From positions 1-27,824 of IMG/VR virus record IMGVR_UViG_3300020042_005038: a DNA stretch of 27,824 bases. One strand, 5' to 3'. The position numbers and the translations under genes were made by a program. The notes under the pieces are model-generated. The model was not told the origin of the DNA, made no database searches, and worked only from the letters and a program-made list of their open reading frames with translations. The stretch comes from a virus (lineage: Duplodnaviria > Caudoviricetes). Positions 2,389-27,824 of the stretch are shown here, one piece after another (positions within the stretch are counted from its first letter, which is position 1; each line of letters starts with the position of its first letter).

Positions 2389-4889
2389 CATATTATTCAA
2401 GACGGCAACTTGAGGCTCTTGGCGAGCCGTTAGGTGATTCAGTTACCCGCAAAGAAGGCGGGCGAATTGTCTATGGCGGCGGCGGTTCTGGTGGCGGTGG
2501 TGGTGGCACTCCTCCGCCTCAACAAAATACTTCCTACAACACTAATATCCCTGAGTATGCAAAGCCTTATGTAACAACTATGTTGGAAGCAACTCAGAAA
2601 CAACTGTTTAATATGGACGGTTCGGATATTACTGGATTTAGAGGATATAAACCCTATAGTACTGATGTAAACAACTACTTTGCTGGTTTTTCTCCTTTAC
2701 AACAACAAGCACAAACTAGTGTAAAAGGACTACAGACTCCTGGACAATTTGGCGATGCTACTACTTTAGCTGGCGCAGCTGGTTTAGGATCTTTAGGTGC
2801 AAGTCAACAATATGCAAGGAACGTAACTGATCCTTCAATGATGCAATCGTATATGTCGCCGTACCAACAAAATGTTACCGACATTGCCAAGATGAATGCT
2901 GTGCGTGAAGCGCAGATAGCACAAAATACTCAAAACCTTGGGGCGGCTCGTCAAGGGACTTATGGTGGGGCTAGGCAAACTCTTATGCAAGCCGAGCGTG
3001 AAAAGAACTTACTGTCTAATTTATCTAACATTCAAGCACAAGGTTCACAATCTGCATTTGATAGAGCGATGCAAGCGCAACAGTTTGGTTCTACTTTAGG
3101 TATACAAGGCTATGGACAAGCTGGACAAGCTGCTTCTACTTTAGGACAACTTGGTGGAGCACAACTCGGTGCTCAAAGAGATATTATTGGTTTACAAAAT
3201 CAAATGGGTGGGCAACAACAAGCGCTTGAGCAAGCTAAGATTAATCAAGCTATCCAAGACTATTCAACACAACAACAGTACCCACTGATGCAGTTGGGCA
3301 TGATGTCTAATATGTTGCGTGGTCTACCCATGCAAGCAACTACTACGCAAACGTATCAAGCAGCGCCCGCTCCCATTACGCAAGGTCTTGGTCTTTTGGC
3401 TGGTGCAGCTGGTGCTAGACAGGCTGGTTTGTTTGCAGAGGGGGGAACTATCAAAAGCTTAGCTTCTGGTGGTGTTGCAGGCTACGCTAATAGGGGAATG
3501 GTTCAGGCTAATCCTGATAGCTCAGTAGTTCGTGGTATCCGTCAAAAATTAATGATGATGGATGCTGACGAGTTAAATCGTGTTGCGCAAAGCAGTCCTA
3601 GCGAAGAAATTCGTGCCATGGCAATACAAATACTACAAGAGCAAAAGATTAGAGAGCAAGCTGAAGCACAAGCTCAACAGTCTATTGCCCAAGATCAACG
3701 TGGTCTACCTACCCCGGTTACGGAGCGAGTTGGTTTACCTGCCGCACCTGCTGGAGCAATGGATACACTAAATGCCGCCAGTGGCGGTATTGTGGCTTTT
3801 GCTGGAAAAGATGAGAGTTTAGTTGAAGCTCCTAATATGTCTTCAGAAGAATACGCAAAATACATAAGTGATGTTATGGGCAGCGATATTTCAATCCAAA
3901 GAAAAAGGGAAATTGCTCCAGGATTAGGGCAGGCTTTAAATCAACTTCTTAGAAAAGAAAATCCTGGTGCTTTTAATACATCACAAAGTAAAGGACTTGG
4001 TGCTACTAAAGAAGTTGCTTCTGTAAATACTCCAAATATGTTTTCAATAGACCCAGAAGAAGAAAAAAGACTTCGTCAACAATATATTGATATTTATAAA
4101 AGTCAACGTGAAGATGCGGGTGTAGGCGCACCCAAAGCTGGGTTAGCCGATATTCTTGCTCTAGAAAAAGCTGGGTTAGCTAAAGAAAGAGAGCAAGCTA
4201 GAGGGTATGACTTAATGCGCTTTGGAGCTCGTCTAGCTAGTCAAGCAGGTCCTACGTTATCCGCAGTAGCTAAAGCAGGAGAAGCAACGCTGCCTGGAAT
4301 AATTGAGTCTGAAAAAGAACTTAAAGGTCGTGAGCGTGAAATAAATAAAGGTATGGCTGAAATTAAAGAGGGTGAGCGCCTAATGAAAGTAGGTGATATT
4401 ACCGCTGGCAATGCCATGTTTGAAAAAGGTCAAGAGCGCATCAGTAAAGAAAGAGTTGCTGGTATGAAGTCTCCTGGCGAAATGCTAGCTTATGCAAATA
4501 ATTATTTAGCATCAAGAAGGGCTGCAGGGGATACACGGGACGAAAACATCATAAGAGAAGAAGGTATGAATGCTCTTCTGGGTCTTCGTGGTGCCGCTGT
4601 TAAACGTGCGGATACTGCGGCTGAAGTTGCAGCTGGTAATATTGGCAACAAGATAGTTGAAGCACATGCTGAAATTGACAAACGTTACCTTTTAAAAATA
4701 GAACTTGCTAAAAAAGAAGATAAACCAAGAATAGAAGCTGAACAAAAAGCAGAAAAAGAAAAAGCAGAAAAAATTATTAAGGGGGGTGGTACGTATGAAG
4801 CTCCTAAATTAGGCAACGTAGTAGAAAATACAAAGTCTACAAAATCTGCATCAAGTAAAGCAAACCCTGCTGATTTTGATACTAAATAA
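2385..4889 (+). CDS. Probable internal virion/DNA-ejection protein, 834 aa
   Basis: Short leader followed by a poly-Gly tract, a Gln/Gly/Ala-rich helical N-half (GTYGGARQ) and a charged coiled-coil C-half. Lies directly before the giant gene. Confidence 0.65.
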   Translation: MTYYSRRQLEALGEPLGDSVTRKEGGRIVYGGGGSGGGGGGTPPPQQNTSYNTNIPEYAKPYVTTMLEATQKQLFNMDGSDITGFRGYKPYSTDVNNYFAGFSPLQQQAQTSVKGLQTPGQFGDATTLAGAAGLGSLGASQQYARNVTDPSMMQSYMSPYQQNVTDIAKMNAVREAQIAQNTQNLGAARQGTYGGARQTLMQAEREKNLLSNLSNIQAQGSQSAFDRAMQAQQFGSTLGIQGYGQAGQAASTLGQLGGAQLGAQRDIIGLQNQMGGQQQALEQAKINQAIQDYSTQQQYPLMQLGMMSNMLRGLPMQATTTQTYQAAPAPITQGLGLLAGAAGARQAGLFAEGGTIKSLASGGVAGYANRGMVQANPDSSVVRGIRQKLMMMDADELNRVAQSSPSEEIRAMAIQILQEQKIREQAEAQAQQSIAQDQRGLPTPVTERVGLPAAPAGAMDTLNAASGGIVAFAGKDESLVEAPNMSSEEYAKYISDVMGSDISIQRKREIAPGLGQALNQLLRKENPGAFNTSQSKGLGATKEVASVNTPNMFSIDPEEEKRLRQQYIDIYKSQREDAGVGAPKAGLADILALEKAGLAKEREQARGYDLMRFGARLASQAGPTLSAVAKAGEATLPGIIESEKELKGREREINKGMAEIKEGERLMKVGDITAGNAMFEKGQERISKERVAGMKSPGEMLAYANNYLASRRAAGDTRDENIIREEGMNALLGLRGAAVKRADTAAEVAAGNIGNKIVEAHAEIDKRYLLKIELAKKEDKPRIEAEQKAEKEKAEKIIKGGGTYEAPKLGNVVENTKSTKSASSKANPADFDTK

Positions 4890-7800
4890 TGGCATACGAT
4901 ATTGAAAGTGCAAGGAAAGCAGGTCTTAGCGATGCTGAGATCAACAATTATCTTGCCTCAAAATATAAGTACAACTTAGCGGGAGCTAGGGAAGCGGGTG
5001 CTCCTGACACCGACATATTAACTCATCTGCTTGCAAAAGATAAACCTGTAGTTAAAACAACGCCAACAACAGAAGTTGCTCCTATAAGCAGTCCTGAAGA
5101 AATAACTTCGCAAGCTGAAACTTCTAGAGGTGCTTTTGCAGCACAACCAGGTGCAGGTTTAACTGAACAGCAAAAACGTCAGTTAGCAGAAGCAACTGCA
5201 AAGTACGAAAAAGAAGTGCCTTTTTTACAAAGACAGACTGATCCAATAAAAGCAGGGGTTAAAGGCTTATCAACTGTTGTTCCAAACTTAGAAATTACTA
5301 GTCTTCAAAAAGAAATTAATGCAATACAAGAAGGCAAAGTTGGTCCACGGGATCCAGTAACTGGAGAAATGACGCCTCTTCAACCAGAAGAAGCTGAAGC
5401 CGCAATTAAATCATTGCAGGCACGGCAAGCAGAAGCACAAAAGAAAGTAATGGGTGTTCAAGCAGAAGTTAGTCAAATTAGAAAAAGACCAGCCGTTGAA
5501 TTATTAAATGATGTAACAACTGCACGACAAGCATTCCAAGCATTTCAAGCCGATCCTCTTGGTATTATGGCTAGTGTATCTTTAGAAAGTTTGCCACAAG
5601 TTGCCCCTGCTCTTGTACTAGGTGCTGTAACACGTAATCCTACTGTTGGTGCATTGGCTATGGGTAGCACTAGCTTTGCTAGTGAATTGTCTTCTGGAGT
5701 TATGGAGTATTTTCAAGATAACGGAGTTGATACTAGAGACCCCGTAGCAGTAAATAAAGCTCTTAATGACCCTGTGTTATTTGCTAAAGCGTACGGGCAT
5801 GCATTAACCCGCGGTTCTATTATTGCAGTAGCAGATACGGCAGCTGCTGGGTTAGCTAGTAAGATGTTAGTGCCTAAACAATTAATAAAAAATCAATTAG
5901 CAAAAGAAGCGGTTAATATTGGTGTAGCTCAACCTACTGCACAAATAATAAGCGGTGGTGGCGGAGAAATACTTGCTCAGCTTGCTACTGAAGGTGAGGT
6001 TAAAAAACCTGGTCGAGCAGTTTTAGAAGCTGCTGGTGAAGGTCCAACTAGTTTATTAGAGACAGCAGCATTTGGCGGGCAACAAGCCTACGAACGTCTA
6101 CCCTCTACGATTGCTAAAAAAGAAGCAGAAGCTAAAGCTGTTGAAGATCAAAAGAAAATTCTTGATAAACTTACTGCTCCTGGCGCTTTAGAAAATTTAG
6201 GTCAACAATTTAACGATACTGTTGAAGGATTAAAAACTTCAATCAATCCTAAAACAACAAAAAAAGATGGGTCAGGTGGACGTTTTTATACTGAACAAGA
6301 AGCCTATGAAGCTGCAGGTAATCTTATATTGCAAGGAGGACTATTAGATGGAACTGAATCAACTATCGGTGGAACAGATCAATCAGGCGTTTCTGTGCCT
6401 GGCAAACCAATCGAAACCAACACCGGAGCTATTGACACTACCGGAGGAGACCTGGCAGCAACTGACACGACTACTACTACTGTTGGAGGCGGAGAAGGAA
6501 CTGAACTCAATACACTAGTTGCAAATCTAAAAGCTAAGTATCCTCAGTTAACAGATGAACAAGCATTAGCAAATGCTGAAGAAAGCCTACGTCAAAAGCA
6601 AATTGCTGCTCAGCAACAAGCTGCTGGTGCTGGTATACCTACTCCAACAAGCGCATTAACTGCTGCGCAAGAACAAAGAAGAACTGAATTAAAAAGCATC
6701 CTTGAGAATGAAGACTTAGGAGATAAATATACCCGTGAGCAGGGTCTTGCTTTAGTAGATGAGTTAATAGCACTAGAAAATATAGCCGAAGGCACAACCC
6801 CACCATCTATTGATACTACTGATACTACAAAAGATAAAAAACCTTCAGTTACTACAGGCAAATCTCGTGGTAGACCAATCGTTAAAAAAACTTCAGAACA
6901 AATAGCCGCTGATGCTGCGTATAAAAAACAACGCCAAGATATTGGTCGTAACGCTAGTAATGATATTAATAGGGCAGAAAAAGTTTTAACCCAAGAGGTA
7001 AATACAGAGCAAATTATTAATAATGCTGCTAACGAACAAGACGCAATATCTCAGTTATCCCAATTAAAACTGCAGCGCATAGGCGCACTTGAGACGGCAT
7101 ATCGTTTATCTGTTGATCCTGACCAAAAAAATAAAACTGCAGGTAAAAAAGCTAGTACGTTACTAAAAACAGCTGACCCCAAAGAACTTGAAACTGCTAA
7201 ACAAATATACGAGTCTAAGAAAAAAATAGGCGCACCTAGCCGTGCCGAAATTAGTGAATCCACTAACGGACAGGATAACACCGTCTTTGAAAAGTACAAC
7301 AACGCACGAAGCGCAGTAAATTGGATTGCTAACAACGGCAACCCTTTTGAAAAAATACTAGCTAGACGGTTACTTCCTTTTCTTAACGGAGTTAAGTTTG
7401 TTGTAGTAGATAGTGCAGACGATATGCCCACTGCATTCCTACGAGACAAGATGATGGGAGCAGCAGGTTTATATGTACCTGACAGAAAGACTATTTATGT
7501 AATGCGTAGCGGCGGTATTAACAATACTGTTGTGTTACACGAAGCCTTGCATGCTGCAACCGTTGCTCGTATTGATGCCTATTTAGAACTAAGAGAAGCG
7601 GGTAAACCTATCCCTGATTCTTTAGAGCGCCCCGTAGCAGAGCTTATGGCTTTGATGATACGGGCAAAAGATAACTTTGATTTGCTTTTTTCTCAGTCTT
7701 TAGAGTCTGGAGACTTAGGGTTACTTACTACTGAGATGTTAGAAATACCTAATGACGCCTTTACTGACGTTAAAGAGTTTGTAGCTTATGGTATGTCTTT

Positions 7801-10800
7801 ACCTGCCATGCAAGAGTTCCTTCTTCTTTCTCCAGGCAAACTTGCAGGTGCTCCTTCTAACTTTGTTGATAGGCTGTTTAATAAATTTGTACAAAGTATA
7901 CGTCAACTGTTTAGTATGGACGAGAAGCATACTTCTGCTCTCCAAGATTTAATTATTGTTACAAACAAATTGCTAGCTGCACCCCTACTAAAAGTTGCAC
8001 CTAGCGAACCTGTAGCAGCCAAAGCAAAACAACCTGCACCACCTAAAACACCTAAGCCACCTAAAGCTCCTAAACAATCAAAAACAGTAGAAAATATCCT
8101 TAGAGCAATTAGGCTATCAAAAACTGGTACCGAATTAAATAGGTCTATTGGTGAATTAATGTTGCAAACAAGAAATGCTAATGATGCCGTTCGGTTAATA
8201 AAAGCTGTTTTTAATTCTATAAATGTAAATAGACTACGTTTAGCAATGTTTATTTTTGATACAAATGATATTACTCGTATGGCAGGGAATCAAATTAATA
8301 ATATAAAAGTTATTAACAATGCTGTAGAAAGTATGGCTGGTATGCGTACTCGCATGATTCGTGAAATGGCAGAAAATGTAGAACCGTGGACTCACTTTAA
8401 TGCAAAATATAAAGAAGGCGGTGAAATTTTAAGTGATTTAATAAATGCTACTACGCTGTTGGAAGTTGATCCTACTAAACATCCTGACTTAGCAACTGCA
8501 TTAAAAAATGATTTAAAACTACAACAATTAGAAAAAAATATTCTTAACCCACCTATAGATCCAAAAACAAACAAACCTAAAAATGTGTCTGCGCTTAAAA
8601 AAGATAGAACAATACGTATTGACAGAATTACAGTAATTTATGAGGGTGGCGTTTATAACAATCCTGTTACTGGTGAAAAAAATAACATGGGCGGGTGGAA
8701 TAAGTTAGGTAAAATTGGTAAAGGAGAAGGACATGCCATATACAAAATGGCAAAAGACAGTTATCAAGAAACATTTAATTTGCATGAACAATTATTAAAA
8801 GAAAAAATTGCGGCTTCTAACGTACCTGGAAATATTAATGATGCGTCTACTCCAAAAGGTAAATTAATTGCGGCAATTACTAAAACTTTTCAAGAAGCTA
8901 AAACACTTGAGGTTTATTTTCCATTAATGCGTTATGGTAATTTTTGGTATAGCGTAGGTAAAGGCAAAAGTGGTGAGTTTTATATGTTTGAAAGTTCTAC
9001 TGCTCGCAATAACGCTATTGATAAACGTGTTGAAGAACTTAACAAAGCTGGAGATAAACGCACCAGAGATAAAATGATTGAGGATGGTGATATAGATCTT
9101 GGTGATGACATTCGCAAACTAAGAGAAAAGCATATTGAATCTAGCGATATGCTTAAAGAAATTTTTGCAATGCTAGATAAAAACAAAACAAATGATATTG
9201 ATGCTGTTAAAGATAACATTTATCAGATGTATTTAATGACCTTACCAGATAAAGACATCCGTCGTAAATTTGTACACCGTCAAGGCAAAACTGGTTTTAG
9301 TGCCGATACACTTCGCAATTTTATTGTTAGTCAACACACTGCTGCTAATCAATTAGCACGATTAAAATATGCGGATCAAATTCGTAATGGTATAGCTGCT
9401 GCTTATGCAGAAATATCTCAAAATCCAAATAAATTAAAATTAGCAGTATTAATTAAAGAAATTAGTGAAAGAGCACTTGCAGAAATTACGCCTAGTGTTC
9501 CAGAGGGGGGTATTAATTGGGATCAAGCTGCTGTAGTGGGTAATAAATTTGTATTCTATTGGTTACTAACTTCCCCCAAATCTGCGTTAATACAAATGAC
9601 ACAGTTAGCTACAGTTGGATTACCAACACTAGGAGCTCAATATGGCATGGCTAAAACTTTAGCAACTGCTTTTAAATACTCAGCGCTTTGGAATAAACTT
9701 GGCGTTTCTAAAACAGATAAAAATGGCAACATAATTACTGAATGGGGTCAACCTTCAATTAACGATTCTAATTATATTGCTAAACATCCTAATTTAGCAT
9801 ATAGAAAAGTATTAAAAGATGCATGGAATTTTGCTAATGACAAAGATCTTTTTATGTCTACTTATGCGTCAGATATGACTTCTATGTCTGAAGTTCCAAG
9901 CGGCACATATCATAACATTGTTAGCAGAGCTACCAGAGGAACATTTAATTTAATTGGTGGTGCGTTCCATCATGCTGAGCGTATTTCTCGTGAAATTATG
10001 TTTATGTCTAGCTTTGAATTAGCTTATGCAGATAACAAGAAAAAAGGTATGGATGACAAAACTGCATTTGATGCAGCTACTAAAAAAGCAACAAGTTTAA
10101 CTACTGATTCTTTATTTGACTATACAAATTACAATAAACCTCCAATAACAAAAACTGCTGGTGGACGAATAGCATTTCAGTTTTTGACTTACCCATTACA
10201 AATGACATCGTATTTAGTACGTAACTTCTACGGCATGCTACCGCTTTTGAATAAAGAAGAAAAAAAAGAAGCGGCTATTAAGTTTTTTGGAACTATGGCA
10301 ATGACTGGTTTATTTGCTGGCGTTACAGGGCTTCCACTATATAGTTTTATTATGGGCGTAATAGACGGTATGCGTGAATTGTTACGAGATGAAGACGAAG
10401 AAGATTACGAAAAAGATGATGAAGGTAATCCTCTTGGCAGACGCAGCACAGATTTATGGGTTAGAAACTGGTTTATTCCTAATTTTTTTGGCCCCGAAAG
10501 TAGTTTGGCACAATTTTTAGGTTTAAGCGAAGAAAACGCAAAAACATTAGCACGTGCATTTGAAATGGGTGTTATACCTGCATATACAGATTTAAACGTT
10601 GCTCCTTCTATTTCTTTAGATGGTATGTGGTTTAGAAGTGACAAACCTGCAGAAACATCTCGTGAAGCATTTGAACAATTTTTGTTAGGTCTTGGAGGAC
10701 CTCTTGTTGGTTTAGGAGGAAATATATTTGCATCAATAGACGATTTTGAAAACGGACAATTTATTAGAGGGTTTGAAAAAATTTCTCCTGCATTTCTTAA

Positions 10801-11263
10801 AGGTAGCCTTACCGCAGTAAGATTAGGTATAGAAGGTGCTACTACCACTAAAGGAGATAAATTAATGGACCCTGAATTTTATACAACTGGTAAATTATTT
10901 GCACAATCTTTAGGTTTTGGTAGCACTGAAGTAGCTCAATTACAAAAGTCTAATTTTTTAGCTAAAGAAATAGTAGTAAAAATGGAAAGTGATCGTGTTA
11001 AATTGCTTAATCGTTTTGACATAGCAATTCGTGATGGTATAGAAACTGAATCTGAAAGACAAAAAGTTATTGAAGTTTTAGAAAAGATAACCGCTTTTAA
11101 TAAAAAAAATCCAATCTCTTCTATTATGATTGAAGAAGAAGATATTATAAAATCTTTTGAAGCACGTACAAAACGTCGTGGTGAATCATATCAAGGACTT
11201 TCTGTTCCAGAAGATTTAATGCCTTACATTTATCCTTTAGTTAAAGGAACTCGTTCTCCTTAA
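4889..11263 (+). CDS. Giant internal virion/polyvalent protein with zincin-like metallopeptidase motif, 2124 aa
   Basis: TAATG coupling. Twin N-terminal repeat (YDIESARKAGLSDAEI / YNLAGAREAGAPDTDI), VVLHEALHAA with downstream EFVAYG, Pro/Lys linker, and a helical C-terminal region with hydrophobic segments. Last gene of the virion block, as large ejection proteins often are. Confidence 0.7.
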   Translation: MAYDIESARKAGLSDAEINNYLASKYKYNLAGAREAGAPDTDILTHLLAKDKPVVKTTPTTEVAPISSPEEITSQAETSRGAFAAQPGAGLTEQQKRQLAEATAKYEKEVPFLQRQTDPIKAGVKGLSTVVPNLEITSLQKEINAIQEGKVGPRDPVTGEMTPLQPEEAEAAIKSLQARQAEAQKKVMGVQAEVSQIRKRPAVELLNDVTTARQAFQAFQADPLGIMASVSLESLPQVAPALVLGAVTRNPTVGALAMGSTSFASELSSGVMEYFQDNGVDTRDPVAVNKALNDPVLFAKAYGHALTRGSIIAVADTAAAGLASKMLVPKQLIKNQLAKEAVNIGVAQPTAQIISGGGGEILAQLATEGEVKKPGRAVLEAAGEGPTSLLETAAFGGQQAYERLPSTIAKKEAEAKAVEDQKKILDKLTAPGALENLGQQFNDTVEGLKTSINPKTTKKDGSGGRFYTEQEAYEAAGNLILQGGLLDGTESTIGGTDQSGVSVPGKPIETNTGAIDTTGGDLAATDTTTTTVGGGEGTELNTLVANLKAKYPQLTDEQALANAEESLRQKQIAAQQQAAGAGIPTPTSALTAAQEQRRTELKSILENEDLGDKYTREQGLALVDELIALENIAEGTTPPSIDTTDTTKDKKPSVTTGKSRGRPIVKKTSEQIAADAAYKKQRQDIGRNASNDINRAEKVLTQEVNTEQIINNAANEQDAISQLSQLKLQRIGALETAYRLSVDPDQKNKTAGKKASTLLKTADPKELETAKQIYESKKKIGAPSRAEISESTNGQDNTVFEKYNNARSAVNWIANNGNPFEKILARRLLPFLNGVKFVVVDSADDMPTAFLRDKMMGAAGLYVPDRKTIYVMRSGGINNTVVLHEALHAATVARIDAYLELREAGKPIPDSLERPVAELMALMIRAKDNFDLLFSQSLESGDLGLLTTEMLEIPNDAFTDVKEFVAYGMSLPAMQEFLLLSPGKLAGAPSNFVDRLFNKFVQSIRQLFSMDEKHTSALQDLIIVTNKLLAAPLLKVAPSEPVAAKAKQPAPPKTPKPPKAPKQSKTVENILRAIRLSKTGTELNRSIGELMLQTRNANDAVRLIKAVFNSINVNRLRLAMFIFDTNDITRMAGNQINNIKVINNAVESMAGMRTRMIREMAENVEPWTHFNAKYKEGGEILSDLINATTLLEVDPTKHPDLATALKNDLKLQQLEKNILNPPIDPKTNKPKNVSALKKDRTIRIDRITVIYEGGVYNNPVTGEKNNMGGWNKLGKIGKGEGHAIYKMAKDSYQETFNLHEQLLKEKIAASNVPGNINDASTPKGKLIAAITKTFQEAKTLEVYFPLMRYGNFWYSVGKGKSGEFYMFESSTARNNAIDKRVEELNKAGDKRTRDKMIEDGDIDLGDDIRKLREKHIESSDMLKEIFAMLDKNKTNDIDAVKDNIYQMYLMTLPDKDIRRKFVHRQGKTGFSADTLRNFIVSQHTAANQLARLKYADQIRNGIAAAYAEISQNPNKLKLAVLIKEISERALAEITPSVPEGGINWDQAAVVGNKFVFYWLLTSPKSALIQMTQLATVGLPTLGAQYGMAKTLATAFKYSALWNKLGVSKTDKNGNIITEWGQPSINDSNYIAKHPNLAYRKVLKDAWNFANDKDLFMSTYASDMTSMSEVPSGTYHNIVSRATRGTFNLIGGAFHHAERISREIMFMSSFELAYADNKKKGMDDKTAFDAATKKATSLTTDSLFDYTNYNKPPITKTAGGRIAFQFLTYPLQMTSYLVRNFYGMLPLLNKEEKKEAAIKFFGTMAMTGLFAGVTGLPLYSFIMGVIDGMRELLRDEDEEDYEKDDEGNPLGRRSTDLWVRNWFIPNFFGPESSLAQFLGLSEENAKTLARAFEMGVIPAYTDLNVAPSISLDGMWFRSDKPAETSREAFEQFLLGLGGPLVGLGGNIFASIDDFENGQFIRGFEKISPAFLKGSLTAVRLGIEGATTTKGDKLMDPEFYTTGKLFAQSLGFGSTEVAQLQKSNFLAKEIVVKMESDRVKLLNRFDIAIRDGIETESERQKVIEVLEKITAFNKKNPISSIMIEEEDIIKSFEARTKRRGESYQGLSVPEDLMPYIYPLVKGTRSP
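6348..6518 (+). CDS. Overprinted 56-aa ORF in the +1 frame inside the 2124-aa gene
   Basis: AAGGAGGA at 6333-6340, 7-nt spacer, ATG at 6348, TAG at 6516-6518. Translation: MELNQLSVEQINQAFLCLANQSKPTPELLTLPEETWQQLTRLLLLLEAEKELNSIH. Confidence 0.65.
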   Translation: MELNQLSVEQINQAFLCLANQSKPTPELLTLPEETWQQLTRLLLLLEAEKELNSIH

Positions 11264-14439: not shown

Positions 14440-14697
14440 TTACTTAAGTTTTGATTCTTTAATGTGCTTAGTTAAACTATTCAGTAACTTAGTTACGTTC
14501 TTGGCATAGCGTTTATCGGGTTCGTACGAACCCACAAACCAGTTGTATATCGTTTGCCTGCTAACCCCAATAGTGGTTGCTACATCTGCAACTGATATAC
14601 CTAGTTTTATAGCCGCTTTACCAAGAGCAACACCAAGCCTACTGCTATCAGCCTGTTTATTAAGCTGAATAGTCTTGGCACTATAGCCGTAACTCAT
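14440..14697 (-). CDS. Cro/XRE-type helix-turn-helix protein, 85 aa
   Basis: ISVADVATTIGVSRQTIYNWFVG is a canonical HTH. Confidence 0.85.
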   Translation of the reverse strand: MSYGYSAKTIQLNKQADSSRLGVALGKAAIKLGISVADVATTIGVSRQTIYNWFVGSYEPDKRYAKNVTKLLNSLTKHIKESKLK

Positions 14698-22241: not shown

Positions 22242-22630
22242 AATTTACCTTTGGGGCTACCGCTTTTTACTTGCCGTTTTCCCGATGATAGTTCTGCTAG
22301 TTTTGCTTTAGCTTCTATTAGTGCTACTACTTCGGAATAACCTAATCCATCTTCTGCATCTCGTAGCAGAGTATTCATGACTCGTTTAGTAAACAGCTCG
22401 CCTTGGAGACTTTGCATCTTGTCCCATAAGGTTTTGATCTCTTTGTCGTTTAGGAATGACAACTGATCTTTGTAGTCCTTACCCCCATTAGTTCGCATTT
22501 CAACAGAGAGGAGAATGTCTCGCCATTTTGCAGGATACCCATCTCGCAGGGTAGGGATAAACTCATCAGGGTTACTGCTCATGCGTTCAAGTAATATCTG
22601 AACACCTTTGTTCATTTCAACATCTGCCAT
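22238..22630 (-). CDS. Hypothetical protein, 130 aa
   Basis: GAGGGGG RBS; overlaps both neighbours. Confidence 0.7.
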   Translation of the reverse strand: MADVEMNKGVQILLERMSSNPDEFIPTLRDGYPAKWRDILLSVEMRTNGGKDYKDQLSFLNDKEIKTLWDKMQSLQGELFTKRVMNTLLRDAEDGLGYSEVVALIEAKAKLAELSSGKRQVKSGSPKGKF

Positions 22631-22946
22631 ATGTGTCCCCCTCGTTGTTAGCCCCTGTTAATTTTTTAAGCAAACTCTCTAACAATGTTAGGTTGCTTTC
22701 ATTTATTACGACGGCAATTCCACCCTGTTTACGGATGTCTGCCATTTCTTTTTCTTGTAGTGCAGTAGGCTTATTGTCGCCTGCCTTGCACTCAATAGCT
22801 ACAAATCTTTTTGAGATGCAACAAATAATATCAGGCACACCGCTACGACCATAGCCATGGGTAGCAGGGAAGAAGTAATAAGCGTCGTAAGCCTTAAGTA
22901 GCTTGACGCATTTATCTTTTACTTTCTTTTCGGGAGTGAGTGCCAT
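22617..22946 (-). CDS. VRR-NUC-like nuclease (possible Holliday junction resolvase), 109 aa
   Basis: PEKKVK...GVPDII...FVAIECK...LQ...GG motif. Confidence 0.85.
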   Translation of the reverse strand: MALTPEKKVKDKCVKLLKAYDAYYFFPATHGYGRSGVPDIICCISKRFVAIECKAGDNKPTALQEKEMADIRKQGGIAVVINESNLTLLESLLKKLTGANNEGDTYGRC

Positions 22947-22952
22947 GCCACC

Positions 22953-22980
22953 ATAATAGCATGGTGTTGGACTTTGTCAA
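22953..22980 (-). promoter_or_regulatory. sigma70-type promoter, probably giving a leaderless mRNA
   Basis: The - strand reads TTGACA-16 nt-TATTAT with extended -10 TGn; ATG follows 6 nt later with no Shine-Dalgarno. Confidence 0.75.
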
Positions 22981-22984
22981 GGAG

Positions 22985-23130
22985 AAAATTGGGTGGAGAT
23001 GTAGATTCTCTGCCACCCTCAGAGTTAACAAGGATTCAGCTAGCCATAAAGTATTGGGGCAAACTAGCTGAAGATAAAATCCATTCGCATCTACAAGGCT
23101 ACTAAGTTCTATCTGTAATCAAACTGCCCC
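22985..23130 (-). ncRNA. Putative structured RNA: two hairpins whose loops pair with upstream segments
   Basis: Stem 23035-23043/23064-23072; stem 22991-22999/23007-23018; loop pairings 23000-23006 with 23089-23095 and 23056-23061 with 23125-23130. Confidence 0.6.
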
Positions 23131-23139
23131 CTAACATTG

Positions 23140-23574
23140 TTAGGTCTTGCTAAGATTACTAATAGCCCGATCCAAATACCATTTAGCTTTCTGTAAGTCT
23201 TCCAACTTATTGCCTTTCAAATCGGCACGACTTACATACTTCACTACATTACCTAGGTTATACCCTAGGTTCTTAGCCTCGATAAAATCAATCGTCTCAA
23301 TACCCCCTGCCTTGTAATGCGGTGGGTGGTTGACCATGTCGGCTTTGCTATGAATACTCTTGTTGGAGGTAGACACTGCTATTACTTGCATACCCTTAGT
23401 AGCTTTACGTGCGGCAGGCTTAGGCGATAGCATTTCTTTCTTGCGACGATATATCGTTTGATACACGCTAGCAATTGGAACTCCTGTTGCCTGCGATACT
23501 TCCTTAGCTTTAGCGTTAGGATTTTTTTGAACGTAACGAACTACTCTACTGCTTTTGGTGAGTTTCTTTCTCAT
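23140..23574 (-). CDS. HTH + DUF3310-like (T7 gp1.7 nucleotide-kinase-related) protein
   Basis: N-terminal AKAKEVSQATGVPIASVY HTH; C-terminal VNHPPHY..GIETIDFI..NVVKY..EDLQKAKWYL. GGAG RBS before ATG 23574. Confidence 0.8.
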   Translation of the reverse strand: MRKKLTKSSRVVRYVQKNPNAKAKEVSQATGVPIASVYQTIYRRKKEMLSPKPAARKATKGMQVIAVSTSNKSIHSKADMVNHPPHYKAGGIETIDFIEAKNLGYNLGNVVKYVSRADLKGNKLEDLQKAKWYLDRAISNLSKT

Positions 23575-23743
23575 TTGTTTCTCCGTTTTGTTGAACATAA
23601 TTAGCTAATACTTCCCTAATCTTTGCACTCTTGTTAGGGTAAGCATTGAAAAACTCTGCTACTTCTTGGCTGATGCGGATAGGTAGGTAAACCATTGCAG
23701 GCTTTACCCCCTTGCCCCTGCCTCTTTTTATTAGTTCAGTCAT
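23546..23743 (-). CDS. Ribbon-helix-helix (BrnA/Arc-like) DNA-binding protein, ~65 aa
   Basis: Basic arm RGRGKG, beta strand VYLPIRI, helices SQEVAEFF and KSAKIREVLANYV. GAGG RBS before ATG 23743. Confidence 0.65.
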   Translation of the reverse strand: MTELIKRGRGKGVKPAMVYLPIRISQEVAEFFNAYPNKSAKIREVLANYVQQNGETNEKETHQKQ

Positions 23744-23951
23744 TTGGTTTATTAGCCTCACGATTTAGTTTGAACAAATAATCTTCCCGATACTCAGTAG
23801 GTGGAACAAATCCGTGCTTTTTCCATGTTCTCATTACGTCAGCACCAGTAGTCCATTTAAATCTTGAGTCTTTATCTAAAGCCATAGATGTCATCTTTTC
23901 TTGTTTAGGTAAATCTTCTACTATAAATACATGTCGTTTCTTATTAAACAT
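23736..23951 (-). CDS. Small conserved phage protein, 71 aa
   Basis: AAGGAGG RBS; DVMRTWKKHGFVPP motif. Confidence 0.75.
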   Translation of the reverse strand: MFNKKRHVFIVEDLPKQEKMTSMALDKDSRFKWTTGADVMRTWKKHGFVPPTEYREDYLFKLNREANKPND

Positions 23952-23960
23952 ACTTCCTCC

Positions 23961-24800
23961 TTAACTAACATTGTTAGGTAACACCAAGAAAGTAGTTTCG
24001 TTAACACGCAAACCTACATCACTAATCACTTGGTTATCTTCAACTAATTTAAGTAGCCCTACTGCCCTACGAATAAAGTCGGGCAACTCATCACTCTGTT
24101 TTATTTCCAAAGGGTCTTCGCCCTTTTGCACAGAATAGTTTACTCCATCTATGAACACAATAAAAGCATTGTTGTTTTTAAACATAGAATCTATATGTTG
24201 CATTGCATGATGCTCATTAAGTTTACTAGGTAACTCTTTTATTGCTTCGCTTGCTCTAGCACCTGGAGTTATTACACTAGCAGTAAACTCTTCGTAGTTA
24301 CTATATATAAAAGTTTGTGCTTGTTGTTCTAACGCACTCCATGAATGTTTTAATGCCCACGCTTTTTCGTTATCTATTTGATATATTGTGCTTTTAACTT
24401 TGTCCTTAGCCTCTTTAAACTTTTCGTCCACATTTTTTCTACCAAAAAACTTATCCACATGCTTAAGTGCTTTGTTAAGGTGAATCGTTTTCATACCACA
24501 ACCACGTTCACGCATGCCTTGAATGCGGTGATTGTCAATACGATACCGATACCCACCACTAGTGTAGTCCTTGTCGATTGAACCTAGGACTTCTCGCTTG
24601 TCTTTAATGTCAAAGCGGTGAGCATGAATAACTTTGTCTGTTGCCATAGCAGTAACGCTAGTTTCGACAAACGTCCATTGCGGATACTTCAAAGCCAACT
24701 GCTCTACTAGGTCTTTGAGAAATGGGTCAATCATGGACTGCCTCTTGATTCCATCGCCAAAGCGGTCATGCTCTTTCAACTCAATGTTTACATATGTCAT
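23961..24800 (-). CDS. Hypothetical protein, 279 aa
   Basis: Long ORF in the operon, GGGG RBS. Confidence 0.8.
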   Translation of the reverse strand: MTYVNIELKEHDRFGDGIKRQSMIDPFLKDLVEQLALKYPQWTFVETSVTAMATDKVIHAHRFDIKDKREVLGSIDKDYTSGGYRYRIDNHRIQGMRERGCGMKTIHLNKALKHVDKFFGRKNVDEKFKEAKDKVKSTIYQIDNEKAWALKHSWSALEQQAQTFIYSNYEEFTASVITPGARASEAIKELPSKLNEHHAMQHIDSMFKNNNAFIVFIDGVNYSVQKGEDPLEIKQSDELPDFIRRAVGLLKLVEDNQVISDVGLRVNETTFLVLPNNVS

Positions 24801-24812
24801 TTAATTATCCCC

Positions 24813-25670
24813 TTACCAATCAAACTTCTTAAGAATGTCGTCGACCTTAGCCTTTACGCTACTACGCACATCAGGGCTTTCCTTGATTGCCTCGATGTCA
24901 ACCCCTAACATTGTTAGTTCAAGGGAACGGCGGGCATTCTCAAGCAATGGGTCTTTCGTTACGTTCAAATGCGTAAGCAAGCCACACAACTCCTGAGCAT
25001 TGGTAATCAGGGTATCGTGATACCTCTTCTTGGTCTCGTCATCGCCATCTATATCGGTTAGCTTTTCTGAGATATGGATAAGAGTCTTATGCAATTTCTC
25101 CCATGGTTCACGCATAGCATCTTTGAGCCTGTCATTAAACGCTGACTCATACTGCTGACCTAGTTCGTCCATGTCTGCTTTGGGTATATCAAGACGGAAG
25201 TCTCCACCCTCGGGCAACGGAGAGAATACCAAACGGAATCCAAACTTGCTACGCAACTCCTCAATACTTGGATAGTCATAAGGGTTGAACAAGTCGCCCA
25301 TATGATGTTTAGATAACTCGATTAAGTCTCCATAGTTTGCATAGAAGTCCTCGATCATGGTGTTCATGTTCTGCTGATACACATTCATGTTTGATTTGTA
25401 GTCCATGAATAGGCTAGTAGGCAGTAGCCTCGCACCTTTGTCTGACCACGATAGCGTAGTCTGATTGTGGTAGAGCCTAGCCTTAGCAGCGTAGTCAGAT
25501 ATCTTCTTACGCTTGTCCGTTCCTGCCATTAGATTCTTACGCACTTGGGCTGAGTCTTTGCTTGCACTATTACTTGCAAGCACACTATCGGTTGCACCCT
25601 TGTCCAACTTGTTGGCAGTCCAAACACTAATGTTTAGTTCTACCAATACTGCACTAGATGAAATACTCAT
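24813..25670 (-). CDS. Conserved helical phage protein next to the AAA/VWA genes, 285 aa
   Basis: GAGGAG RBS; LVELNISVWTANKLD, TLSW...RLLP and DYPS motifs. Confidence 0.75.
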   Translation of the reverse strand: MSISSSAVLVELNISVWTANKLDKGATDSVLASNSASKDSAQVRKNLMAGTDKRKKISDYAAKARLYHNQTTLSWSDKGARLLPTSLFMDYKSNMNVYQQNMNTMIEDFYANYGDLIELSKHHMGDLFNPYDYPSIEELRSKFGFRLVFSPLPEGGDFRLDIPKADMDELGQQYESAFNDRLKDAMREPWEKLHKTLIHISEKLTDIDGDDETKKRYHDTLITNAQELCGLLTHLNVTKDPLLENARRSLELTMLGVDIEAIKESPDVRSSVKAKVDDILKKFDW

Positions 25671-25672
25671 GA

Positions 25673-25915
25673 TTAACTCTCCTCAGGTTTGCCAGCTAAC
25701 TTCGCCAATGAATACATGTTGTTACTTAACACCTTCATACTGCACAACTCCTTCTGTTGCGGAAATATATGGTAGGTATTGCCACCTCTTTCGTTTGATC
25801 GGTATACCTCCTTATACATTTCTGCATCTTTGAGTAGGTCTAACAATGTTAGAGCCTTGTCTGCCTCCATCACAAAATGTTTGTCATACCCAAATTCAAT
25901 AATTACTTTAGCCAT
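25673..25915 (-). CDS. Hypothetical protein, ~80 aa
   Basis: AAGGA before ATG 25915 (MAKVIIEFG); the track's longer start overlaps the VWA gene. Confidence 0.7.
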   Translation of the reverse strand: MAKVIIEFGYDKHFVMEADKALTLLDLLKDAEMYKEVYRSNERGGNTYHIFPQQKELCSMKVLSNNMYSLAKLAGKPEES

Positions 25916-25919
25916 AGGA

Positions 25920-27161
25920 TTAGTCCTTAACATGTATCGTTTTACCCACAGGGGCATACTCCTTGTTGCCCCCAACAATAGTCCATAGAATCGGTGCATT
26001 CCACTTGTCTCCCCAATTACCAATGTAGCCGTCAGTCAGCATGATGATTGCCTCGGGCTTGATTGCTTTCTCTTCCATGTATCGCATTACGCAAGTAGGA
26101 TCAGTCCCCCCACCACCCGCAGGTTTGGTTGAATCAATGATTGAATCTACTTGACTAGATGAATACTCCTCATGTCCCGCAACTTCGCCGTCCCAATAGA
26201 TTAGGTCTACCCTGTCAGGGTGAACATCTTTCGCAATCGACTGCACCTCGGATAAAAACTCCGCTAGTTCCTTATTGCCTACTGAGCCACTCGTATCAAT
26301 GCCAATCACAAGATGACCCACTCGTTCACCTATTAGGCTAGGCATATAGATATCACTAGAGAGATACCTACGATTAACCCGTCGCCACGAACTTGTGTCT
26401 TTTGCATTACATGTAGTTTTAACAAACTCACGCAACACATCTCGCCAATCCACCTTGGGTTCAAGCAACTCGGATAGGTCTCGACCCATACCACCACCGC
26501 CTTTGCCTGCAACTTTCTGTTCGGCAATAAGTCCTTGACGAATAGCGGAGTCAATGTCTCGTTCCAATTCTTTCTTGGCTTGCTCGTCTAGTGCTTTCGC
26601 ACCTTCCCAATCATGCTCATCAAACCCACCACCGCCACCGCTACCACCACCTTCGCCTTCTTCATCACCATCGCCACCCTCGCTTTGTTCTTCCTTGAGA
26701 ATGTCGAATACTTGCTTAGCGTTCATACCTCTGAAGCGTTCGTCGATTGCACCTAGTGGCTTACCATTAGCTTGCTTGGGCATGGCAAGTAGTAACTCGT
26801 CTTTGTCCATGTCATGTAGCTGAAGGTTAATCACATAGTCGCATGCAAGGTTAGCTAGTTTGTGATTTTCGTCATGCAACTTTCGCCATGTAAACATATG
26901 TCGATAGGCTTTGTGCAATGTCTCATGCAACACCACGAATGCCAACTCCTTGTCGTCCAACTTCTGAATAAACTCACGACCATACAACTCATCTCTGCCG
27001 GTAGTGCATGCGGTTGGTATGTCTTCCACTACGCTAGTCTTACCAACAGTCATAAGACCTGACCACAAAGCAAATCTAGGGTTACGCATGATTGAGATTT
27101 TTACTTTGCTCAACCGACGTTCCTCTTTGTCCTTTACTATTACTTCACTATTACCTAACAT
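25920..27161 (-). CDS. HExxH metallopeptidase-like + VWA domain protein (DUF2201 type)
   Basis: PTACT.G, VVLHETLH, NLACDYVIN, Gly/acidic linker, DEHDW, MIDAS IDTSGS, GGGGTD, LTDG. AAGGAG RBS before ATG 27161. Confidence 0.88.
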   Translation of the reverse strand: MLGNSEVIVKDKEERRLSKVKISIMRNPRFALWSGLMTVGKTSVVEDIPTACTTGRDELYGREFIQKLDDKELAFVVLHETLHKAYRHMFTWRKLHDENHKLANLACDYVINLQLHDMDKDELLLAMPKQANGKPLGAIDERFRGMNAKQVFDILKEEQSEGGDGDEEGEGGGSGGGGGFDEHDWEGAKALDEQAKKELERDIDSAIRQGLIAEQKVAGKGGGGMGRDLSELLEPKVDWRDVLREFVKTTCNAKDTSSWRRVNRRYLSSDIYMPSLIGERVGHLVIGIDTSGSVGNKELAEFLSEVQSIAKDVHPDRVDLIYWDGEVAGHEEYSSSQVDSIIDSTKPAGGGGTDPTCVMRYMEEKAIKPEAIIMLTDGYIGNWGDKWNAPILWTIVGGNKEYAPVGKTIHVKD

Positions 27162-27309
27162 TGTTAGTTCTCCTTGTTGTCCATACATCAAAAAAATCTT
27201 CCGCTTTATATCCACGCTTAGCTAGTAACCGCCTTGCTTTACGCAAAGCGTTCTTCTGTGCTTGACGAACAGCCTCTCGGGATACCATGCTACCCTTAAC
27301 ACCCCTCAT
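27151..27309 (-). CDS. Small basic protein, ~52 aa
   Basis: AGGA before ATG 27309; fills the operon gap. Confidence 0.55.
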   Translation of the reverse strand: MRGVKGSMVSREAVRQAQKNALRKARRLLAKRGYKAEDFFDVWTTRRTNNVR

Positions 27310-27487
27310 GGTATCTTCCTGTTCTATCAAAATATTCTTCGGCATACTCCAATACCTCTTGTCTAAGTAAATCGACGGGGTATTTACCATTAGCCAAATC
27401 ACATAACAAATCTAAGAATGAATCGGGGTCTAGGTTATCGCTACCAATCCAATCCTCCATCATGCTTTTAGTTATAACTTGGCTCAT
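27296..27487 (-). CDS. Small acidic protein, 63 aa
   Basis: GAGG RBS; ATGA overlap with the ATPase gene. Confidence 0.65.
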   Translation of the reverse strand: MSQVITKSMMEDWIGSDNLDPDSFLDLLCDLANGKYPVDLLRQEVLEYAEEYFDRTGRYHEGC

Positions 27488-27824
27488 AGCAAGTCCTCAT
27501 TCTTCTGAACCCAATCAGCAAACTTCGATGAACTGAAAGCAATCTGTTGTTTGGTTGGTGACTTCGCAATGTTGATTGCAAAGCATGCTTGCCACTCGGC
27601 TTGGAATCTTTCAATGTATTCCATGAACTTAGGCATGGATTGTTTATCCACCTTAGCGATTGCACCGAACACAATAATTGCACATGCACCTGCTGACTCA
27701 GGAACAGTCGCAGTCTTTGGATTAGCGATCACAGATTCCCAAGTAGGAAGCTGATCCGAGAACTCTATGTATGCTTGCATATCCCGACTAGCTGACTCGC
27801 CTACCGCACCACTCATTGCACATA
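27484..27824 (-). CDS. C-terminus of a probable MoxR-like AAA+ ATPase, truncated at the window edge
   Basis: GAVGE..A..F...LP..E..IANP....VP, YIER...EWQ and FADW pattern typical of AAA proteins upstream of HExxH-VWA genes. The Walker motifs are outside the window. Confidence 0.65.
   Translation of the reverse strand, partial: CAMSGAVGESASRDMQAYIEFSDQLPTWESVIANPKTATVPESAGACAIIVFGAIAKVDKQSMPKFMEYIERFQAEWQACFAINIAKSPTKQQIAFSSSKFADWVQKNEDLL

Follow-up and report, generated by a model that had tools for sequence, protein, structure and literature searches.

A palindrome array confined to the early arm of freshwater phages and its covariation with the first early gene

The stretch of DNA analysed here, called the window throughout, is a whole 27.8-kb phage contig (IMGVR_UViG_3300020042_005038; 27,824 nucleotides) and a fragment of the phage genome. 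Its plus strand carries ejection-type genes, and its minus strand carries the early and replication operon (the end of a MoxR-type ATPase gene, DUF2201/vWA, DUF3150-like, RHH, HTH-DUF3310, VRR-NUC, PolA, helicase and primase). The subject of this study is an array of six exact copies of the palindrome CTAACAWTGTTAG that lies over the distal part of the early operon (22617..27824, minus strand), from the ATPase end through the DUF2201/vWA, DUF3150-like, 279-amino-acid (aa), RHH and HTH-DUF3310 genes to VRR-NUC. Three copies, given like the others without a strand, are internal to genes: one at 22679..22691 in the VRR-NUC gene (encoding LTLL), which is the last site of the array and lies ~270 bp downstream of a strong replication-operon promoter, one at 24905..24917 in the DUF3150-like gene (LTML; kept at synonymous positions) and one at 25840..25852 in a 116-aa open reading frame (ORF; LTLL). 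The copy at 23965..23977 takes up final codons of the 279-aa gene directly before the next ribosome-binding site, that at 23131..23143, where the early operon ends, runs across the HTH-DUF3310 stop codon, and that at 27155..27167 covers the codon at which the DUF2201 metallopeptidase/vWA gene likely starts. Near copies are present at 9912 (12/13) and 13950 (11/13), and with up to two mismatches the window contains 8 matches, a number reached by none of 100 shuffles (mean 1.07, maximum 4). An earlier reading of the same DNA from its letters alone (the sequence-only reading) had reported the six exact copies, the 12/13 copy at 9912 and the gene context of each of the six, and all of these coordinates and contexts were confirmed.

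The window holds only part of the array. A relative that is 95% identical to the window over 3.9 kb, L002, carries 24 sites across 11.8 kb and, since the window is a 27.8-kb fragment, the six copies are, as judged from this alignment, the distal end, about the last quarter, of a longer array. Among 80 viral loci found through the DUF3150-like protein, with duplicates kept in, 64 have at least three exact copies, 14 have a variant palindrome and 2 have none. Across 16 genomes that are complete or nearly so, 205 of the 207 sites fall between the start of the gene for the terminase small subunit (TerS) and PolA, a count for which the search pattern of each genome was picked after viewing that genome's sites; the interval makes up 14-22% of the genome. 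The array starts a short way ahead of the early promoter, ends with the operon and is confined to the early arm, which bears out the earlier proposal that it marks one region. Site numbers are 20-27 in G001, G002 and G004 and 6-17 in the other 13 genomes, and the spacing is more even than random (p<0.05) in six of the 16, namely all five with the window's motif and G015, and not significantly even in the remaining ten. Of the 227 sites of 18 genomes or fragments, 45 lie in conserved genes, 79 directly precede a ribosome-binding site with its start codon, and 103 were left unclassified. The description of the palindromes as largely inside genes holds for the distal part in the window. On the early strand the central base is A in 50 sites and T in 39 (p=0.29), and this lack of strand bias is what would be expected for a dimer on double-stranded DNA, in keeping with the dimeric reader that had been proposed.

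Synonymous-site conservation of the in-gene copies had been put forward as a check, and in alignments whose rows are related by descent and are thus not independent events, the sites are kept. The 24905 site is in the same place in 46/56 rows with the same motif and in 0/22 with another motif; the corresponding counts are 24/56 and 0/14 for the 25840 site and 28/51 and 0/23 for the 22679 site, the last read by eye because an alignment gap broke the automatic count. At 24905 the Leu, Thr and Leu codons are the window's own in 43/44, 45/47 and 45/46 of the rows that retain the residue, compared with 0.58 for the gene's other codons. In L038, which has a two-base spacer, the VRR-NUC residues are retained and the site is lost through a synonymous change. 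By this codon evidence the in-gene copies are under selection as DNA, and coding sequence would here have been bent to carry binding sites and relaxed again after the motif changed.

Palindrome types and the first early gene

Relatives of this phage carry at least 18 types of palindrome, with spacer lengths of 0, 1 or 2 merged as one type. De novo scans of the same arm found TAACA half-sites with each of these three spacers, CTAAC-N3, GTTACA-N1, GTGAC-N2, CTGATAC-N0, GTGGGAA-N0, GTAGCGT, AACCTAG-N5 and others. Phages of different types can have TerS similarities of 0.92-1.00, and the loci of one palindrome type range over 41-56% GC. The switched genomes G016 (12045 and 16845) and G012 (3129) still carry relic in-gene sites of the window's type, and L047, L039 and L040 have relic or mixed sites of another type beside a different main palindrome. 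Such sites suggest recent switches, switches in progress or recombination.

Our candidate reader is the first gene of the early operon, which lies beyond the right end of the window, likely about 4.3-6.6 kb past position 27824 by alignment to L002, where there are two paralogues, at L002:313-837 and L002:1980-2582. Its covariation with the palindrome was followed in 98 loci of 18 types, made up of 87 of 108 distinct TerS-anchored loci and 11 genomes added by hand; TerS-anchored loci with no significant palindrome, with a terminator-like best match or with no first ORF found were dropped. For the 86 rows that are not the sole representative of their type, the nearest neighbour is of the same type in 86/86 when judged by the first protein and in 76/86 when judged by TerS. 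All 32 different-type pairs with TerS similarity above 0.8 have a first-protein similarity of at most 0.14, and for 190 same-type pairs the medians are 0.65 and 0.78. The maximum cross-type similarity of the first protein is 0.20 in a test of 13 families and 0.37 in the 98-locus comparison. L547 and L557, with a TerS similarity of 0.73 and a first-protein similarity of 0.83, indicate that reader and motif recur together across TerS clades. Sites 8-9 kb distal follow the first gene despite near-identical intervening genes (between G016 and L056 the DUF3150-like protein is 99% and the RHH protein 100% identical). Palindrome type changes 18 times on the first-protein tree and 21 times on the TerS tree, the minimum possible being 17, in a FastTree comparison that is indicative as it was made without shuffles.

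Two genomes fetched as apparent negatives, G022 and G023, have first proteins that form a second family with that of G014 (similarity 0.45-0.53), and a TACYYRRGTA core is common to the three, at 7, 4 and 13 sites, respectively. Neither an array nor a first-protein match was found in the complete genome G021 or in the 9 kb of early arm of L660. In these comparisons palindrome type tracks the first gene and does not track any of 13 further conserved genes that were tested. A change of the first early protein goes with a change of palindrome, so this protein likely binds the sites. The reader supposed by the sequence-only reading thus finds support and is likely encoded by the phage. The branch with neither array nor first-protein match (G021, L660, L666, L667, L670) opens its early arm with a different gene, of 230-240 aa, and G021 also has no ATPase/vWA/DUF3150 module.

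The AlphaFold2 model of the first protein (mean predicted local confidence, pLDDT, 82) shows four helices joined by an acidic, disordered linker to a helical hairpin at the C-terminus. The fourth helix, alone among them, is consistently basic, and its sequence differs between types. A profile search returned 397 relatives at E<=0.001, all unnamed, and tblastn against 50,697 cultured phage records gave no match. Fold searches gave nothing above background (best Z 5.6), with no HTH-plus-stoperator repressor listed. In a Pfam scan of 47 members at E<=1, DUF3102 (PF11300), a weak language-model lead (0.82 and 0.79), was absent from the 25 families listed out of 29, and PF25746 is a weak look-alike (0.77) of the second first-protein family. 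The first protein of G006 aligns weakly to the family core, and the remaining first proteins without a match may belong to it distantly or not at all. The first protein probably represents a new DNA-binding family.

The sequence-only reading had named three other candidate readers: the small RHH-like protein (gene at 23546..23761, minus strand), the 85-aa HTH protein (14440-14697) and the HTH-DUF3310 protein. The position of the RHH gene at the array's end, often with a site directly after it, would suit such a role, but the protein is 100% identical over 56 aa in G016 and L056, whose palindromes differ, its strand residues vary widely within one palindrome type, and it is absent from array-bearing G006 and present in array-less G021. 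The recognition helix of the 85-aa HTH protein is nearly unchanged across types A-D, G, H and I. A reading of the palindromes by the RHH or the 85-aa HTH protein is contradicted by these observations, and we give it almost no credence. The HTH-DUF3310 protein is missing, by clustering, from 5/10 array-bearing genomes. TerS and other conserved early genes fared no better, each of the 13 families tested having a cross-type pair at 0.60-0.99, and the 279-aa protein has one at 0.79. When alignment columns were screened for residues fixed in the window's type, most of the positions found were dictated by descent or by the sites themselves.

Other genes of the early arm and distant relatives

The 16 sequencing runs that contain at least half of the window's sampled words are freshwater or lake metagenomes, and 4 RNA runs contain 5-7% of these words. 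The 279-aa protein (gene at 23961-24800) is fast-evolving and present in all of the 19 G-handle records compared; its model (pLDDT 94) has two beta-rich domains linked by long helices, and a fold search gave no clear match, the best (Z 7.0) being a frataxin-like arrangement. A strong sigma-70-like promoter, identified by consensus match only (11/12 positions), lies at 22953..22980 on the minus strand, ahead of the VRR-NUC/DNA polymerase operon and near the array's distal edge, and a 140-bp non-coding stretch (22990-23130) separates it from the 23131 site. The 63-aa ORF at 27306-27488 is a variable insertion between the ATPase and vWA genes, skipped in contigs from 4/4 runs examined, which have nine other letters instead. 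The near copy at 9912 is carried by the gene (4889-11263) for a 2124-aa ejection-type polyvalent protein with a DarB-like C-terminal part, which is highly variable among close relatives. Elsewhere in the family, a protein with an RNA polymerase alpha C-terminal domain is encoded at L266:6401-6895 (G002) and a phage-borne GcrA cell-cycle regulator at L280:266-754 (G006); from general knowledge we take the latter to suggest an alphaproteobacterial host for that branch.

The cultured phages nearest by terminase (DSL-LC04, HTVC027P and HTVC023P; 53-57%) showed no repeated palindrome in 4 partial-genome stretches. Phage MinM2 (OQ594354; L302 / W01), a distant relative, has 25 copies of GTTCA-N3-TGAAC, mostly ~30 bp ahead of start codons, 13 of them in the early block and 12 outside it. 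Three records identical in length and score state different cyanobacterial hosts and the stretch examined has 68% GC, so the host label may be wrong. No published description of the present array or of MinM2 was found in open-licence papers and preprints, supplements excluded. A 60.6-kb phage-like contig in a Bradyrhizobium isolate assembly (L521 / G026:C42) has ATPase, vWA and PolA genes as well as ~14 degenerate TACC-N5/6-GGTA sites, one of them directly before a 250-aa first early gene. No integrase was found among the 26/46 proteins of this contig that were scanned, which hints at persistence in culture without integration.

Possible roles of the array

The sequence-only reading had held that the palindromes do not look like ordinary operators, a statement that now appears too strong. 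In 71/87 loci the interval -200..+100 around the first gene's start contains a site, usually just upstream of the early promoter, and in 36 of the 43 loci with a -10-like hexamer the promoter-proximal site is centred 54-76 bp upstream of the inferred start, just before the -35 region, as placed by loose matching with no control. A second site is often at the ribosome-binding site, and the last sites at the early-operon end stand beside a terminator in G006 and G008 and flank the strong replication-operon promoter in the window. Because the sites bracket promoter and operon end and cover start and stop codons, they would suit an autoregulated repressor that closes the early arm.

That the palindromes are dispersed operators of such a repressor, the first protein, is the explanation we favour, at slightly better than an even chance. 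The protein would bind as a dimer, making contact through its basic fourth helix and pairing through its C-terminal hairpin, and its occupancy at the promoter, at gene starts and in genes would block both initiation and elongation and may loop the arm. It would thereby limit its own synthesis, and the whole early arm would be off once the protein had accumulated. A resident phage would repress newcomers that carry its own palindrome, and this would be why reader and sites switch as a pair; such fast joint switching of protein and sites resembles what is described of immunity regions in excerpts of a study of mycobacteriophage repressors (PMC6550527). Since no tyrosine integrase or serine recombinase was found in 5/5 complete genomes, what the protein acts on may be the early-to-middle switch and relatives in co-infection, and not lysogeny. 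A more far-reaching version, which we consider rather doubtful, is that the first-made reader coats and loops the bounded 10-13 kb early arm as a silenced nucleoprotein domain beside the packaging start, and that phages without lysogeny genes swap the reader, rewrite the array and so escape silencing by co-infecting relatives, which would create superinfection immunity groups in lytic phages. If the array does serve immunity, phages of a widespread freshwater family in which no lysogeny genes are recognised would fall into exclusion groups directed against other phages.

Several observations weigh against the repressor interpretation. First proteins of the same type can be barely alike, with similarities down to 0.03 (0.08 between G011 and L585), so part of the covariation reflects fast evolution and close linkage to the nearest sites. 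At least two first-protein subfamilies go with the TAACA half-site, and its three spacer lengths were counted together. L567 has an array and no first gene was found in it by an ATG-only scan. The covariation set comprised no virion proteins, and one motif-switch pair shows divergence of the large ejection protein too. The first protein has a median isoelectric point of 5.8, being net basic in the fourth helix only, and it has no match to a Pfam family, a solved structure (PDB) or a viral model. A site 54-76 bp upstream of the start also fits an activator, and the absence of integrases and recombinases in the five complete genomes leaves an immunity role without a known lysogenic state. Lastly, according to an excerpt of one study, L5 stoperators need site orientation (PMC9283540), and the palindromes here have none.

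The sharp confinement of the array would also be accounted for if the first protein or a virion protein coated or bridged the early arm to compact or protect the first-entering DNA or to help pull it in, with repression a side effect or absent. The even spacing of the five window-motif genomes and of G015, new sites that arose in long genes at the cost of fixed codons, and the predicted two-domain protein, whose linker would permit bridging, all point in the same direction. So does a G-rich tract ~20 bp outside the first palindrome, present in 44/87 TerS-anchored loci (L539-L763) and in 0/87 control stretches, which could be a packaging-start or genome-end signal. Spacing is, however, not significantly even in 10/16 genomes, sites are mostly at gene starts in several lineages and in MinM2, where 12 of the 25 lie outside the early block, and DNA entry or packaging alone would leave at least 18 specificities among close relatives unexplained. 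We regard such a domain-marking role as unlikely. C-rich 12-mers similar to the G-rich tract are also present in array-less G021. If the first protein were instead an activator or anti-terminator that boosts early transcription, the 54-76 bp distance of the first site in 36/43 loci and the many sites directly ahead of gene starts would be natural; few internal sites, however, are near a sigma-70-like promoter, sites on start codons, on stop codons and in mid-gene fit blocking better, and the early promoters are already near consensus. We consider this quite improbable.

A host regulator could in principle bind the sites, with types differing as hosts differ. This is disfavoured because very close phages, with TerS similarities of 0.92-1.00, differ in type, and one type covers loci of 41-56% GC while following a phage gene; we would give the host explanation a very slim chance. 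Searches of prokaryote genomes pointed to no reliable host; no relative of the DUF3150-like protein was found in them, and the PolA matches were mostly stray contigs in assembled bins. The palindromes might also be recombination or gene-conversion cassettes, or RNA or DNA hairpins, with no protein reader. Longer flanks are common to intergenic sites in some lineages, suggesting conversion among sites, and the repeats of Cluster O phages mediate deletions (PMC4351075). Isolated 13-bp in-gene sites without common flanks are nevertheless selected, the centre has no strand bias, and 0 of 15 joints (of 33) end at a site. A readerless array would, in addition, leave the covariation with the first gene unexplained, and we hold it to be very unlikely.

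Comparison with known repeat systems

In the integrating Streptomyces phage phiC31, the repressor c binds dispersed conserved inverted repeats. Unlike in phiC31, the family PF25746 had no match in 5/5 genomes here at E<=1, in a search without a positive control. The matS/MatP and parS/ParB systems of bacterial chromosomes likewise use dispersed palindromes, restricted to one DNA domain, many in genes and with slowly changing motifs. The sites described here resemble them in being confined to one domain; no MatP or ParB family match was found among the phage proteins scanned, and no ParA/ParB in partial Pfam scans, which did not include a search aimed at those families.

The logic of the array is closer to that of the Cluster A mycobacteriophages. 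As described in excerpts of two studies (PMC9283540, PMC6550527), one phage protein there (L5 gp71, and that of TipsytheTRex) has more than 20 13-bp sites per phage, at promoters and in short intergenic gaps, and the joint divergence of repressor and stoperator motif produces heteroimmunity (PMC6550527). Here as well, motif and candidate reader diverge together between lineages, and the site numbers are similar, with 20-27 in G001, G002 and G004 and fewer in the other 13 genomes. By the same excerpts, however, Cluster A sites are asymmetric, oriented with transcription, spread genome-wide and bound by a monomer with an HTH and a stoperator domain, in temperate phages, whereas the sites here are perfect palindromes, unoriented, in one arm only and often in genes, with a candidate reader that has no solved-structure match and with no integrase found. 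Judged by its sites, the array is thus stoperator-like in logic but fails the defining asymmetry and orientation of Cluster A.

In anatomy, the array is closest to the 17-bp palindrome of the Cluster O phages. An excerpt of its description (PMC4351075) gives 34 copies, about a third in coding regions and densest in one operon, with a variable A/T-rich centre, no clear orientation and a function then unknown, in phages that are not obviously temperate. Invariant arms, a variable centre, many copies, a part of them in genes, and a lack of orientation are shared with the array described here. In Cluster O, by the same excerpt, the sites are genome-wide, there is one motif per cluster and no reader was identified; here the sites are confined (205/207 in one arm, those of MinM2 being more dispersed), they come in at least 18 types, and the gene of a candidate reader covaries with type. 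The first early protein would therefore be a candidate reader for a kind of phage repeat whose function had stayed open since the Cluster O description, and the family would offer a natural library of at least 18 protein-palindrome pairs, without a known fold, for the study of specificity evolution and for orthogonal regulators.

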